NCBI GenBank assembly: GCA_963516105.1
Contig: CAUPZP010000003.1
Coordinates: 58,046-122,045 of the forward strand
DNA from: an uncultured Campylobacter sp.
GTDB taxonomy: Bacteria > Campylobacterota > Campylobacteria > Campylobacterales > Campylobacteraceae
DNA length: 64,000 bases
Direction: 5' to 3'
Made by a program: the position numbers and the translations under genes. This document shows positions 2,466 to 10,383 of this stretch, one piece after another. Numbering within the stretch: the first letter of the stretch is position 1; every line of letters starts with the position of its first letter. The notes below the pieces were generated by a model that saw only the letters and a list, made by a program, of their open reading frames with translations, was not told the DNA's origin and did no database searches.

Positions 2466-3496
2466 TGGCAATAAAGCTAAATGAACAACAAAAGATGATT
2501 TACGACGACCTTTCGATGCCCGAAAAGGTCGCTATTTTGCTTATTCAGCTAGGCGAAGATGTCACGACTCTGCTTTTTTCGCATATGGAGGTTGACGTCA
2601 TAACCGAAATTTCGCGCTATATAGCTACCGCAAAGAGTACCGACAAAAGCGTAGCTGCTGCGGTTTTAGAAGAATTTTACGCTCTCATGCAGTCAAATCA
2701 GTATATGAGAAGCGGCGGCTTAGAGTACGCGAAAGAAATTTTATACCGCACCTTTGGTCCTGAAGCCGCGCAAAAGATACTCGACAAGCTCGCAAAAAGC
2801 ATGGAAAACACAAAGAGCTTCGGCTATCTTACTAAGGTCAAGCCTCAGCAGCTTGCAGACTTTATCGTTAACGAACATCCGCAGACTATCGCGCTTATTT
2901 TGGCGCATATGGACTCAACCAGCGCGGCCGAGACGCTTTCGTTTTTTAATAACGAGCTTAGAAGCGAGGTCGTCGTGAGAATGGCAAATTTGGGCGACAT
3001 TAGCCCGTCTATAATCAAACGCGTTTCAACGGTACTAGAGGGCAAACTAGAGAGCCTCACGTCCTACAAGGTCGAAGTCGGCGGCCCGAGAGCCGTGGCG
3101 GAGGTGTTAAACCGCCTCGGACAAAAGGCGTCCAAAGCTACGATCGAATATATCGAGGACGTCGACGACAAGCTCGCTACGACGATCAAAGAGCTTATGT
3201 TTACCTTTGAGGATATTAACACCCTCAATCAAGCAGCTATCCGCGAAATACTTAAAAACGTCGATAAAAAAGACCTCATGGTCGCTCTAAAAGGCAGCGG
3301 CGACGCATTGAGAGATAAATTTCTCTCCAGTATGTCTCAGCGCGCCAGCGACTCGTTTAAAGAAGAAATGCAGTTTTTGGGAGCGGTGCGCGTAAAAGAC
3401 GTCGAAGAGGCGCAGCGCCGCATAGTAGAGCAGGTTCAGGCCTTAGCGGAGAGCGGGGCGTTCCAAATAGGCGAAAGCGATGAGATGATAGAATGA
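2465..3496 (+). CDS. fliG: flagellar motor switch protein FliG
   Basis: EHPQTIALILAH and MFTFED motifs. Confidence 0.98.
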   Translation: MAIKLNEQQKMIYDDLSMPEKVAILLIQLGEDVTTLLFSHMEVDVITEISRYIATAKSTDKSVAAAVLEEFYALMQSNQYMRSGGLEYAKEILYRTFGPEAAQKILDKLAKSMENTKSFGYLTKVKPQQLADFIVNEHPQTIALILAHMDSTSAAETLSFFNNELRSEVVVRMANLGDISPSIIKRVSTVLEGKLESLTSYKVEVGGPRAVAEVLNRLGQKASKATIEYIEDVDDKLATTIKELMFTFEDINTLNQAAIREILKNVDKKDLMVALKGSGDALRDKFLSSMSQRASDSFKEEMQFLGAVRVKDVEEAQRRIVEQVQALAESGAFQIGESDEMIE

Positions 3497-7104: not shown

Positions 7105-7788
7105 TCACTTCGCGACGCGATTTACCCAGATCAAAAACTCATCGCTTGAGTTCTCGTCGTCTAGATGCGCGGGAGTGACTAGCTCAAGTGCAGTCTGCGG
7201 GATCGTCGTTTTAAACGTCTCTATTACCCACTGCTGAAATTTCGCGTTTGGATGCACGATAAAATCCTCGCTGTTTGGCGGCGCGCTAAAATCCTCGTCC
7301 CAGCAGATCTCGTCGTATCCGATCGCAAGCAGCCGTAAAAAATCAAGCCCGCTGCGAGCCAAAACGCAGGTCATCGTCGAGCCCGAGCCGGAGCCCATGT
7401 GCACGATCTTTGTTTCCCCTGCATCATCCAGCCACAGCGCACACATCGAGCCCTCCGAGCCGCTGCCTGCGAACACGCAAAGCCGCTACTTGATCTCTGC
7501 GGCAAGCTCGCGATCCTCGCCGTAAAACCAATACCTTAGCTCCTCGTCGCGATTTTTCGGCTCATCCGTGAAAAAGACGATGTCCGTGCCGCCCTCGCGC
7601 TCATCGTCGCTCCAGCTCTGCCGTAGCCGATCCTGCGGGTAGAGATAGCCGCGTCTGCGCCCGCCAACATCGTCATAAAAGCCGTTTGTTTCGATCCACG
7701 CATAAAGCGCCTCAAGTTCGCTCGGCACGCACATGCCCTGCGGTAGCGCCTCGCGCAGCTGCGCTAACAATAAATTTTCCACGATCAC
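7105..7788 (-). pseudogene. SMI1/KNR4 (SUKH)-like protein interrupted by one in-frame TAG
   Basis: ORFs 7486-7788 and 7105-7476 are in the same frame, separated only by TAG at 7486-7488 (…AEIK*RLCVFAGSG…). The family call rests on the 'PSELEALYAW…FAGSGSEGSMCALW…IVHMGS' pattern. Confidence 0.65.
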
Positions 7789-8148: not shown

Positions 8149-8813
8149 CTAAATTCCTAGCTCAGCCCTCACGAGCGCTTCGTTTTGCGGCGTCAAAAAG
8201 CCCGCGATATCCTGCCACATGGAGTGAAAGCCGTATCCGCCCTCTATCATCTCGCTGCGCGCGGCATCTAGCCCCGATCAGATCACGCGGTACATCGCCA
8301 CCACAAGCCCCGTGCGATCGGCTCCGTGATAGTAGTGCACGAGCACGGCGCCCTCCTTTTGGCGCTCGCGAATGGTGCGCAAAACGTCCGCTATTTGCGC
8401 GGGCTTACTCCTGGCTTTGAAGCGGCTTGTTCGCGAGCCAAAATTGATCCCCAAACGCCCTTTTATCGCCGCCTCTGCTAAAATGGCGCAGATTTACGAT
8501 GCTTTTGATGCCAAGTTCGTGCAGCTTCGCGGCGTAGCTTCCGTCAAGCTGAGCGCTGCGAAACAGCAGCTCGTCCACGCGGTAGAAATTTTTCGCTTCG
8601 TCGATGAGGGTTGCTTTTTGCGATGAGTTTGTGCCGCGCACTGCGGTATCTGCGTCTTGAAATTTGGCACCTTTTGCGTCCGCGAGATTTAACTCCGCGC
8701 CGCTCGTTTTTATAAAATTTATGGAATTCGCTTCTTTCGCAAGCTCAGCATTTACGCCGGTCGCAAAGAAAAATACGACCGCTAGCGCAAGGGTTTTAAA
8801 TTGCAAATTTCAT
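8149..8813 (-). pseudogene. exported dual-specificity/tyrosine phosphatase pseudogene
   Basis: The N-part (signal peptide, FYRVDELLFRSAQL, GIKSIVNLR) stops at 8405. A shifted frame continues …VLVHYYHGADRTGLVVAMYRVI*…GGYGFHSMW…ELGI* to 8149. The RBS-preceded ATG at 8813 is out of frame with the body. Confidence 0.8.
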
Positions 8814-9004
8814 CCTTTAAATTTGGCTAAATTTTATGATTTTTGTAAAATTTGACGCCAGATTAGTCAAAATACAAAATGGCAAGCGCGCCTAAATTTA
8901 GCATAAAATTTAAGCGTCAAACCCGCCAAAATCGCTGCTAAATTTTGCCGCGAGCCAGCAATCCGCACCGCAAAAATCAAAATTTCGTCTCAAAATTTCC
9001 CCGT

Positions 9005-9176
9005 TCCCGCCCTCGGTATCGCTAGATCAGTACGCGGTAGTTACATTGCGTAGTTACATTGCCCTTGTAAATTTACTGAAAATAAATCGTAAAAGGGATG
9101 CGCCCGTTTCCGCGAGCGCTGCCATAAACCTGTTTCACAGGTGAGTTTCGTACTCGCCTCTTGCAATACTTACCCG
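9005..9176 (-). ncRNA. candidate structured non-coding RNA downstream of the DIP1984-family gene
   Basis: Nested long-range stems, three internal hairpins and a 13-nt tandem repeat (see findings). No ORF of 60 aa or more is present. Confidence 0.6.
9037..9062. repeat. 13-nt perfect tandem repeat GTAGTTACATTGC x2
   Basis: Read directly: 9037-9049 and 9050-9062 are identical. Confidence 0.95.
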
Positions 9177-9228
9177 AAATTTTAATTTTCACGAAATTCT
9201 TTCAAATTTCGCCGCTAAATTTGACGAT

Positions 9229-9684
9229 TTAGTCGATCAGACCGGTCTGCCAGTTCGCGCCTTGCAGCGTCGTGTCAAGCTGTCTGATCTGCTTTGCTAG
9301 CTCATCCACCTGCTTTTGTAGCGCCGCGACATCGACCGTGCTTAAAATTTTAATCTCGCTGCGCGAATAAATTTCCACTTTTTGCGCGGCGACTTGCGCG
9401 AAAGCCCGCAGCGCTCCCGCTTTTAGCGTGAGTACGTCGCGTTTGGCGATCAGCTCAGTGAGGCTCTTGCCGTCCGCTTTTGCGGTGCAGTTGGTTAAAT
9501 TTATCCGAACGATTAGCCGCTCAAGCTCGCTTGTGAGCGCGTCTAGCTCGGCTAGCAGCGCCTTTGGCTCTTCGCTAGGATTCTCGCCCTCCTGCACTTT
9601 TGCGTTATCCGCGAGCCTTGATTTTAGCTGCTCGATGCGTTTTTGTATGTCGGCGCGCAGTATCAGCGCCTCGGCTAGTTTCAT
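9229..9684 (-). CDS. DIP1984-family (DUF6847-like, often mis-annotated 'septicolysin') coiled-coil protein
   Basis: Characteristic MKLAEALILRAD start, INLTN, RYSRSEIK-like 'IYSRSEIK' and Q-x-x-NW end; AAGGA RBS upstream. Confidence 0.8.
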   Translation of the reverse strand: MKLAEALILRADIQKRIEQLKSRLADNAKVQEGENPSEEPKALLAELDALTSELERLIVRINLTNCTAKADGKSLTELIAKRDVLTLKAGALRAFAQVAAQKVEIYSRSEIKILSTVDVAALQKQVDELAKQIRQLDTTLQGANWQTGLID

Positions 9685-9702
9685 TTTCGTCCTTTTTAAA
9701 AT

Positions 9703-10383
9703 TTATTTGCCGCCGCCAAGCTGTCGATCTTGTCCGTAGTGCGGTGAATACGGGCCGTAGAGCAGGCAGTCTCGGCAATCGGTGCTAAACAAAATCGCGT
9801 CCGCGCGCGCCGATAGGTCAAAGCTCGCGTCCGAGACCGAGTCTGCGATCTGTTTAACTAGCGCGGAGACTAGCATGCCGATGAGGTTGCCGCCACCGTC
9901 GCCGGAGTCGTTTGCCGCGGTGGCACTTTTTTGCCAGAGTACGGCGCCGGTGTTTAGATTGACTAGAGTCGCCGCTACGCTCACGCGCGTGACGCTGCTA
10001 ATGAGCATATACGAGGTGCCGTAGTCCGCGACGTTTAGATACAGCGCGGCATCGGCGCCAAATATCTGCTTTAGCTTGTGCGTGGAGACTTGTGCGATCT
10101 CCGCCGCGTCGTAGATGCCGTTGTTTTTAAAGGTCTCGTTTACGAGCGCGGGCGAAAATACGTAATACCCCGCCTCGCTAAGCGGATAGAGCGCGTTTGC
10201 CAGCACCGCTGCAGAGGCCTTTATCTCGGATGAGTCGCTGGTTGGCATCATGACTACGATCGAGCGAGGCTTGGTCTGTAAAAACGTCGAGTAGTCGTAA
10301 ATCTCTGGCTGCGAGCCGGCGCACGCGCCCAGAAACAGCACTGCAAACGCGCCAAGGAGCGCCGATTTTATTTTATTTTTCAT
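9703..10383 (-). CDS. DUF799 / GNA1162-family lipoprotein
   Basis: Lipobox FLGAC; KPRSIVVMMP, PLSEAGYYVF, IFGADAALY and LLYGPYSP. Confidence 0.85.
   Translation of the reverse strand: MKNKIKSALLGAFAVLFLGACAGSQPEIYDYSTFLQTKPRSIVVMMPTSDSSEIKASAAVLANALYPLSEAGYYVFSPALVNETFKNNGIYDAAEIAQVSTHKLKQIFGADAALYLNVADYGTSYMLISSVTRVSVAATLVNLNTGAVLWQKSATAANDSGDGGGNLIGMLVSALVKQIADSVSDASFDLSARADAILFSTDCRDCLLYGPYSPHYGQDRQLGGGK

Follow-up and report, generated by a model that had tools for sequence, protein, structure and literature searches.

In the window, the whole 64,000-nt stretch of an uncultured Campylobacter sp. genome that was analysed, a gene of the DUF6847/DIP1984 family is followed on the same (minus) strand by a folded RNA element, and the two form an obligatory, oriented gene-RNA pair with a complex conserved fold, a self-contained module found on chromosomes and plasmids. 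Comparison of sequences indicates that the element is a real RNA family, for which we found no description, tied to the widespread DUF6847 protein family. The RNA is probably the bound partner of the DUF6847 protein in a ribonucleoprotein (RNP), a reading to which we assign a probability of about 0.55. The pair had been proposed from the letters of the window (the original prediction); the quoted sequence and all coordinates proved correct, with the element drawn from a GGG at 9175 and its conserved extent now seen to reach 8992. Gene and element are placed as follows:

9229-9684, minus strand: DUF6847/DIP1984-family gene of 151 amino acids (aa), with matches to Pfam PF20935, NCBIfam NF038048 and PDB 3kdq
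8992-9183, minus strand: whole conserved RNA element, the 5' boundary taken from insertions and deletions (indels) in relatives and the 3' boundary from loss of synteny in locus L012

The assignment of the gene to the DIP1984 family holds over the full length of the protein: the PF20935 (DUF6847) profile matches residues 10-149 of the 151-aa protein with 183.6 bits against a cut-off of 27, NF038048 (DIP1984_fam) matches residues 2-149 with 192.3 bits against a cut-off of 70, and the uncharacterised structure PDB 3kdq is matched with an E value of 4.8e-28. The stop codon lies at 9229-9231, and the sequence behind it is as originally described. Synteny in L012 is lost immediately after GGGGAAATTT, placing the 3' boundary of the element near 8992. 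All model searches reported here used R1, a covariance model built from 15 Campylobacter sequences only, which describes 11 + 5 base pairs (bp) in helices P1 + P2 and is insensitive outside the genus; its match at G000:C3:67040-67228 corresponds to window positions 8995-9183.

The window's own genome carries a single full-length copy of the element. A BLAST search found matches in 7 of 24 same-genus genomes, relatives in which the entire 2.1-kb region is 88-90% identical, so that conservation of the element at that distance says little; their alignment contains two compensated positions in the second stem, and hairpin 1 is replaced wholesale or deleted. Of 121 genomes of the genus, 107 encode a PF20935 protein, in single copy and at one syntenic locus. 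We read the 450 nt that follow the stop codon in the window and in 50 other such loci and found a related element in 51/51, including loci with a protein only 43-49% identical. Common to these copies are a 5' GGUA, a GCGAG before the second stem, the block UGUNACUACC and a tail of the form GGGYGGG-N3-GGGG, and both closing stems vary in sequence with their complementarity kept. Over the 121 genomes, R1 returned exactly one match in 106, each on the contig and strand of the gene and 5-64 nt (median 9) after the Pfam match, and none in the 14 genomes that lack the gene; the sole gene with no R1 match, in G109, is cut by a contig end. One copy per genome, on the gene's strand, just behind the gene and only in gene-holding genomes is what the proposed two-part module called for. 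The same single match in each of 106 genomes, with one copy in the window's own genome, excludes a gene-independent, genome-wide repeat, and a dispersed element resembling a repetitive extragenic palindrome or a miniature inverted-repeat transposable element (MITE) was rejected on these grounds.

Beyond the genus, related loci were collected with an N-terminal peptide pattern taken from a 12-sequence alignment, which gave 80 loci, 68 of them outside Campylobacter; this sample is biased to proteins with the N-terminal motif and covers Fusobacteriota, Bacillota, Chloroflexota, Deinococcales, Cyanobacteriota, Bacteroidota, Acidobacteriota and one metagenome-assembled genome (MAG) of Methanomassiliicoccales. 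A descriptor of the core, which calls for GNG, 5 bp in P2, a triplet like ACC and no fewer than 6 bp in P1, matched 47 of the 64 loci that had 200 nt or more downstream of the gene, compared with 6/64 on the reverse complement and 4-6/64 in shuffled sequences. Among the 17 misses, 14 carry the tail motif, L110 has a variant tail, and L158 and L133 have the RNA behind insertions; all 64 loci thus carry the RNA, two of them behind an insertion. In L158 the complete RNA lies 445 nt downstream of the gene, behind an inserted 148-aa open reading frame (ORF) at 2953-3399 that overlaps the DUF6847 stop codon. In L133 it lies ~335 nt downstream, and the insertion of that length between stop codon and RNA (~2953-3285) has inverted-repeat ends and is MITE-like. 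The original prediction had suggested that similar text stands behind homologues in other phyla, and this was correct.

Over the 68 other-phyla and five genus loci, R1 gave 40 matches at E <= 1; in 22 other-phyla loci a full-length match at E < 0.01 lies directly behind the gene. In a cyanobacterial order, 16 of 101 sampled genomes hold the gene and 10 of the 101 have R1 matches at E <= 0.1, all of them 8-262 nt behind the gene and on its strand, with no match in the 85 genomes that lack the gene. Of five distant one-gene genomes, three have a single genome-wide match, in each case adjoining the gene; in the other two (G137 and G138) R1 misses an element that is visible by eye, as it also misses the variants of Bacteroidales and Acinetobacter baumannii. 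In a cyanobacterial MAG (G244, the genome of L166), the strings AGGGCGGGCACGGGG and AGGGTGGGGATGGGG occur 40 times over many contigs, compared with one occurrence of a control pattern, which suggests a short repeat spread through that genome and not connected with the RNA.

The protein family comprises 2236 clusters (50% identity) matching at E <= 0.001. Homologues occur in 371 plasmid records, and Acinetobacter plasmids, many of them small, account for 342 of these. In three plasmid records (L173 1962-2458, L174 1950-2267 and L175 1959-2228) the 269-496 nt behind the DIP1984 gene are unannotated, and the RNA lies inside this gap. The Enterococcus faecium plasmid variant (L174 1955-2160) has GGGUGGG 5' of P1 and a shortened 3' tail, followed by a strong terminator. 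Neighbouring genes are not conserved across 21 loci that were read, none of which has a defence-island setting, and the lack of conserved neighbours marks the gene-RNA pair as self-contained. Toxin-antitoxin genes stand near the pair in L102 and L109. A riboswitch or 5' leader of a downstream gene was rejected: the downstream genes differ and are often on the other strand, and synteny in L012 breaks after the element.

The core of the element consists of two closing helices joined by an internal loop, flanked by a conserved strand on the 5' side and a G-rich strand on the 3' side:

9177-9183, minus strand: putative 5' strand of P0, AAAAUUU, of low complexity in the window, which would pair with 8992-8998
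9170-9175, minus strand: GGGUAA, the window's version of the conserved motif (U)UGGUAG; GGUA stands 5' of P1 in aligned copies
9159-9169, minus strand: 5' strand of P1, covarying with 9016-9026
9155-9158, minus strand: GGCG strand of the P1-P2 internal loop, facing GA at 9027-9028; conserved in genus alignment A1
9150-9154, minus strand: 5' strand of P2, AGUAC, covarying with 9029-9033
9029-9033, minus strand: 3' strand of P2, GUACU, covarying with 9150-9154
9016-9026, minus strand: 3' strand of P1, covarying with 9159-9169
8999-9014, minus strand: G-rich tail GAGGGCGGGAACGGGG, family consensus GAGGGYGGG-N3-GGGG, a pattern matched by 51/51 genus copies
8992-8998, minus strand: putative 3' strand of P0, AAAUUUU, which would pair with 9177-9183

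The two stems originally drawn by eye (9163-9169 with 9016-9022, and 9149-9154 with 9029-9034) fall within P1 and P2, and both helices covary. In 40 model-aligned copies from several phyla, 93.4% of 455 P1+P2 cells are paired, compared with 59.6% in shuffled alignments and at most 49.4% in slid registers; 16/16 pairs are changed on both sides, and compensatory cells number 185 compared with 55 in shuffles, counts that are to be taken as upper bounds. Conserved, covarying structure behind homologues, the check that the original prediction had put forward, is therefore found across phyla. The same P1/P2 substitutions are also visible in unfitted sequence printouts, P2 for example occurring as AGCAU/AUGCU, AGUAA/UUACU, AGUAU/AUACU and AGUGU/ACACU. 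RNAalifold applied to a plain MAFFT alignment recovered P2 alone, the other helices being misaligned. Folding energy by itself does not stand above chance (minimum free energy -46.6 kcal/mol, z -0.97; an energy at least as low is reached by 33 of 200 shuffles). Among the 455 cells, 36 are G-U/U-G and 8 are A-C/C-A, an excess that agrees with an RNA of the gene's strand and upholds the strand argument first drawn from the non-Watson-Crick positions of the window. P0 is an outermost helix that in many copies surrounds the whole element; it reaches at least 7 bp in 23 of 42 other-phyla copies, compared with 11.5% for mismatched flanks.

Within the core, G27, G29, A30 and G31 of alignment A1 (internal loop) are invariant and C28 nearly so, and GCGAG-like text stands ahead of P2 in other phyla too. 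In the UGUNACUACC block, which also occurs in other phyla, the genus alignment has no variation at T141, A143, T145, C147 and C148 and almost none at T139, C144 and A146. A pairing of GGUA with UACC is possible; both sides are near-invariant, so that no covariation signal is possible for it. Outside the genus the 5' junction strand is commonly UUGGUAG; its likeness to the tRNA D-loop is presumed from the general tRNA consensus. The G-rich tail pattern is present in 48 of 68 other-phyla loci and absent from the Bacteroidales and Acinetobacter-plasmid variants. P1, the GCG loop, P2 and ACUACC are retained in the Bacteroidales and A. baumannii plasmid copies that lack the G-rich junction, which identifies these parts as the universal core. 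A hairpin with the tRNA T-arm consensus (GGYUCRANUCY) was found in 25 of 64 other-phyla loci and in 0 of 51 genus loci.

In the region enclosed by P2, the fold first drawn had to be revised:

9128-9142, minus strand: variable hairpin, hairpin 1 of the original prediction, 4/6 pairs compensated; the site of an H-type pseudoknot in other phyla (by eye)
9100-9119, minus strand: hairpin Hb, originally hairpin 2, whose loop forms a pseudoknot; kept in the genus alignment
9107-9110, minus strand: 5' strand of pseudoknot PK-b, GAAA, in the Hb loop, pairing with 9078-9081
9078-9081, minus strand: 3' strand of PK-b, UUUC, pairing with 9107-9110
9050-9062, minus strand: first copy of the 13-nt repeat GCAAUGUAACUAC, lineage-specific, varying in close relatives and unalike in the L068 and L070 groups
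9036-9049, minus strand: second copy of the 13-nt repeat (9037-9049) plus C, with the widely conserved block UGUNACUACC ending in ACC

Hairpin 1 is real in the window's clade, where the genus alignment has 4/6 of its pairs compensated, but dispensable, being deleted in the close relatives L044, L050, L055 and L057; in many other-phyla copies an H-type pseudoknot, as read by eye, takes its place. Hairpin 2 is kept, with none of its first four pairs changed on both sides. Hairpin 3 finds no support: 0/7 of its inner-stem pairs have a compensatory change, and it competes with the covarying PK-b, for which 100% of cells are paired in 15 genus sequences and 3/4 pairs are compensated. Comparable pairings of a loop with downstream sequence were seen elsewhere (GAGAA/UUCUC, GAGCGU/ACGCUC, GGGCA/UGCCC and GGAC/GUCC); outside the genus the pseudoknot is a reading by eye, an unanchored script search for such pairings being too noisy, and in some cyanobacterial copies alternative pairings to the PK-b counterpart exist. 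The 13-nt tandem repeat is present where it was reported. It is lineage-specific, and only its 3' copy overlaps the widely conserved block; by a strict core motif, 12 of the 46 distinct genus sequences have two or more copies, and of 46 sequences from other phyla 9 have at least two and 21 have none. The notion of an RNA that presents short single-stranded repeats is weakened by this restriction to a clade.

The element matches no Rfam 15 family, and the original prediction had likewise recognised no named RNA family in it. Rfam 15 yields nothing on the window's element at E <= 10 and no gathering-level match in the whole window, nothing on the element of 12 other-phyla loci at E <= 1, and chance-level partial matches only in L104. 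In 17 loci ARAGORN recognised no gene at the element; the likeness to tRNA is confined to the isolated T-arm hairpin, which is not enough to place the element among tRNAs or transfer-messenger RNAs (tmRNAs). In the part of the literature on DUF6847, DIP1984, septicolysin and 3KDQ that was covered, a scope outside which RNA motif catalogues and supplements fall, no paper links the gene to an RNA. The last 12 positions of the D12-methyl RNA model RF02950, AGGGCGGGAACG, read like the G-rich tail; the match has 13.1 bits against a cut-off of 57 (E 4.4) and occurs in one locus only, the window having none, and the likeness is probably that of a common short G-rich string and not homology.

Three known systems offer the closest comparisons. 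In many bacteria smpB lies directly upstream of ssrA. As in that pair, a small protein gene is followed here by a same-strand structured RNA with pseudoknots, and copies from other phyla often have a T-arm (25 of 64) and a D-loop-like GG motif. Unlike in tmRNA, neither a CCA acceptor end nor a tag reading frame was seen in the element, and the four-helix protein is not SmpB; the sole match to the tmRNA model in Rfam is a 15-nt T-arm with 8.5 bits. The Rsr (Ro60) protein with its Y RNA or YrlA likewise combines a protein gene with an adjoining non-coding RNA that has a tRNA-mimicking part (T-arm, D-arm) and is patchy across phyla, but RF02553 does not match the element and the partner protein is unrelated. 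A YrlA-like RNA in L149 (51.5 bits against a cut-off of 69) is separate from the element and 2.4 kb upstream of the gene. OLE RNA with OapA is a large orphan structured RNA with a partner protein, and it resembles the present case as a long, highly structured bacterial RNA conserved with one specific protein gene; it differs in sequence, architecture and partner, the RNA here is much shorter, and no sign of membrane proteins was seen.

We propose that the RNA is made as a 3' extension of the DUF6847/DIP1984 mRNA and acts with the protein. The gap between stop codon and element has a median of 11 nt in other phyla and 22 nt in the genus, and terminator-like hairpins follow the RNA in 14/45 and 16/51 loci (30/96); we infer co-transcription because a gap of 11-22 nt is too short for a promoter or terminator and because such hairpins stand behind the RNA in about one third of loci. 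By analogy with smpB upstream of ssrA, or with rsr beside Y RNA genes, an RNP could then form, and the nascent protein could meet the RNA on the same transcript. The long P1 helix, the conserved GCG/GA internal loop and the UGUNACUACC block make up the universal core and would most probably form the surface of contact. Peripheral modules would be UUGGUAG with its likeness to a D-loop, the G-rich strand that faces it and the optional T-arm; through them the particle may have a tRNA-like elbow with which to reach the machinery of tRNA handling or of translation. That the pair is self-contained and that the RNA has been kept despite the insertions in L158 and L133 count in favour of such a particle.

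Several observations weigh against the RNP. A chief weakness is the protein, which is not basic: with a pI of 6.4 for the window's protein and of 5.1-6.8 for 42 of the 45 representatives, the family is mildly acidic. Fold searches likened the DUF6847 fold to nothing of known RNA-binding role, and the conserved protein residues are identical for G-tailed and tail-less RNA partners, no protein-RNA co-variation being found. The covariation counts come from a model-fitted alignment of related sequences, binding and transcription are presumed, and the case as a whole is built on comparing sequences. In addition, two genomes (G093 and G131) keep the RNA beside a DUF6847 gene broken by internal stops, which would fit either a separate function for the RNA or simply a recent decay:

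G093:C1:108240-108648: broken DUF6847 gene with the RNA kept, R1 82.3 bits
G131:C14:5366-5751: broken DUF6847 gene with the RNA kept, R1 37.3 bits

These same genomes bear on the alternatives. The element could act only in cis, in the 3' untranslated region, and govern how stable the DUF6847 mRNA is, how its 3' end forms or how it is translated, perhaps with ligand sensing or feedback by the protein and with no separate particle. We regard this as possible and the most serious alternative: at median distances of 11 and 22 nt P0 and the junction would lie under a terminating ribosome, no copy of the element occurs apart from the gene, and terminator-like hairpins stand behind the RNA in 14/45 and 16/51 loci. 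The helices, pseudoknots, optional T-arm and conservation over many phyla nevertheless exceed the needs of known stabilising 3' structures, and a cis role sits poorly with the two loci in which the RNA lies 335-445 nt from the gene and with the two genomes in which it stands beside a broken gene. Survival beside broken genes would suit an independent non-coding RNA or single-stranded DNA element that shares the locus with DUF6847 and has an unrelated function, as would a protein with no sign of RNA binding in its pI or fold; adjacency and orientation in every locus examined, in distant phyla and despite unrelated surroundings, together with an element never found without the gene, make this quite improbable.

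The defence or RNA-antitoxin function first suggested, in which the RNA would neutralise or arm the protein in a toxin-antitoxin-like or anti-phage module, also appears unlikely. The many small Acinetobacter plasmids among the 371 plasmid records, the patchy occurrence in the cyanobacterial order (16/101) and the toxin-antitoxin genes near L102 and L109 are what such a module might display. The protein has no match among the PADLOC models, the RNA lies downstream of the gene and is not a repeat array, neighbours are not conserved, the 21 loci read lie outside defence islands, and the gene is single-copy at one syntenic locus in 107 of 121 genus genomes, near-universal in the genus. In type III toxin-antitoxin systems, tandem RNA repeats stand upstream of an endoribonuclease toxin gene with a terminator between; a ToxIN-like system was set aside, the RNA here being downstream and its two 13-nt repeats clade-limited. 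Finally, an intrinsic terminator with AT-rich filler, or a small coding ORF, has practically no claim left. A terminator scan flags the 9100-9119 hairpin and a 41-aa ORF is listed at 9041-9166, but the hairpin, the sole terminator-like one, is internal, with conservation and pairing continuing to 8992. Covarying structure extends ~100 nt beyond it, as expected from the early judgement that the element is more than a terminator, and indels of 1 nt and 17 nt fall inside the ORF among close relatives; comparative data already contradict both readings.

With its obligatory, elaborately folded RNA partner, the DUF6847 family gains a first concrete functional handle; the structure has been solved since 2009, the function is still not known, and the family is commonly mislabelled septicolysin. 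The RNA accounts for the unannotated 269-496 nt gaps behind the gene in three plasmid records and adds a widespread structured class, with tRNA-like and pseudoknot modules, that Rfam 15 does not recognise; structured RNAs of this kind are a frequent source of new biochemistry. More speculatively, and with considerable reserve, the pair might represent a new ancient class of bacterial RNP and, alongside tmRNA-SmpB and Y RNA-Ro, count as a third RNP that mimics tRNA. The junction of a D-loop-like UUGGUAG strand with a GGGYGGG-N3-GGGG strand, possibly a split G-quadruplex, and an exchangeable tRNA T-arm would together form a tRNA-like elbow, by which the particle could dock on the ribosome or on enzymes of tRNA processing or RNA repair.

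The 151-aa protein has its nearest named relatives in Campylobacter showae and C. concisus, some sources giving the label 'septicolysin'. Its AlphaFold (AF2) model is confident (predicted local distance difference test score, pLDDT, 97), compact and formed of four helices, where the original prediction had supposed a coiled-coil oligomer, and superposes on 3kdq with a TM score of 0.96 and a root-mean-square deviation (rmsd) of 1.1. In fold searches with the model 3kdq alone was significant, the rest being generic helical hairpins with Z <= 9.3, under the noise level for helical proteins. A search of the Atlas with the protein gave no lead, PHROGs gave chance-level matches only, and stop-codon usage of the gene is unremarkable. 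The conserved residues are mainly polar or charged (R10, D12, R23, Q31, E32, N62, N65, E110, D127, R134, Q141, N144 and W145); conservation of the N-terminal motif in the collected set is partly the result of selection, the motif being the pattern of the related-locus search.

Two gene neighbourhoods were noted in their own right. In a Pyrinomonadaceae MAG (L149; 24-167, 254-1429, 2303-2476, 3209-3285) three tRNA genes flank the pair, and RtcB and the YrlA-like RNA are 1-2.4 kb away; the relative L157 also has RtcB, and the RtcB association is that of a single lineage. In a Coleofasciculus genome, L162, only 60 nt separate the start of the DUF6847 gene from the end of an RNA-ligase gene (1452-2441; PF09414 plus OB fold), and among the fetched loci no other has an RNA ligase near the pair.

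In the window, CsgG-like, DUF4810 and GNA1162-like lipoprotein genes lie upstream of the DUF6847 gene on the same strand, and a candidate promoter precedes it:

9700-9727, minus strand: promoter-like site upstream of the DUF6847 gene, by consensus match only (TCGACA-16-TAAATT, 9/12)

The region holds three promoter-like sites where 1.2 would be expected, which makes this weak evidence for the site. Further downstream of the element, two adjoining ORFs of 100 and 123 aa occupy 7105-7788 (minus strand) and have no Pfam or NCBIfam match. The gene directly downstream of the RNA element opens as a 133-aa ORF with a signal-peptide-like start (8405-8806, minus strand) and continues in another frame at 8278-8454 (minus strand) with the phosphatase-motif-like text HGADRTG; neither piece has a Pfam or NCBIfam match, and from its sequence the gene at 8278-8806 may be frameshifted or mis-assembled.

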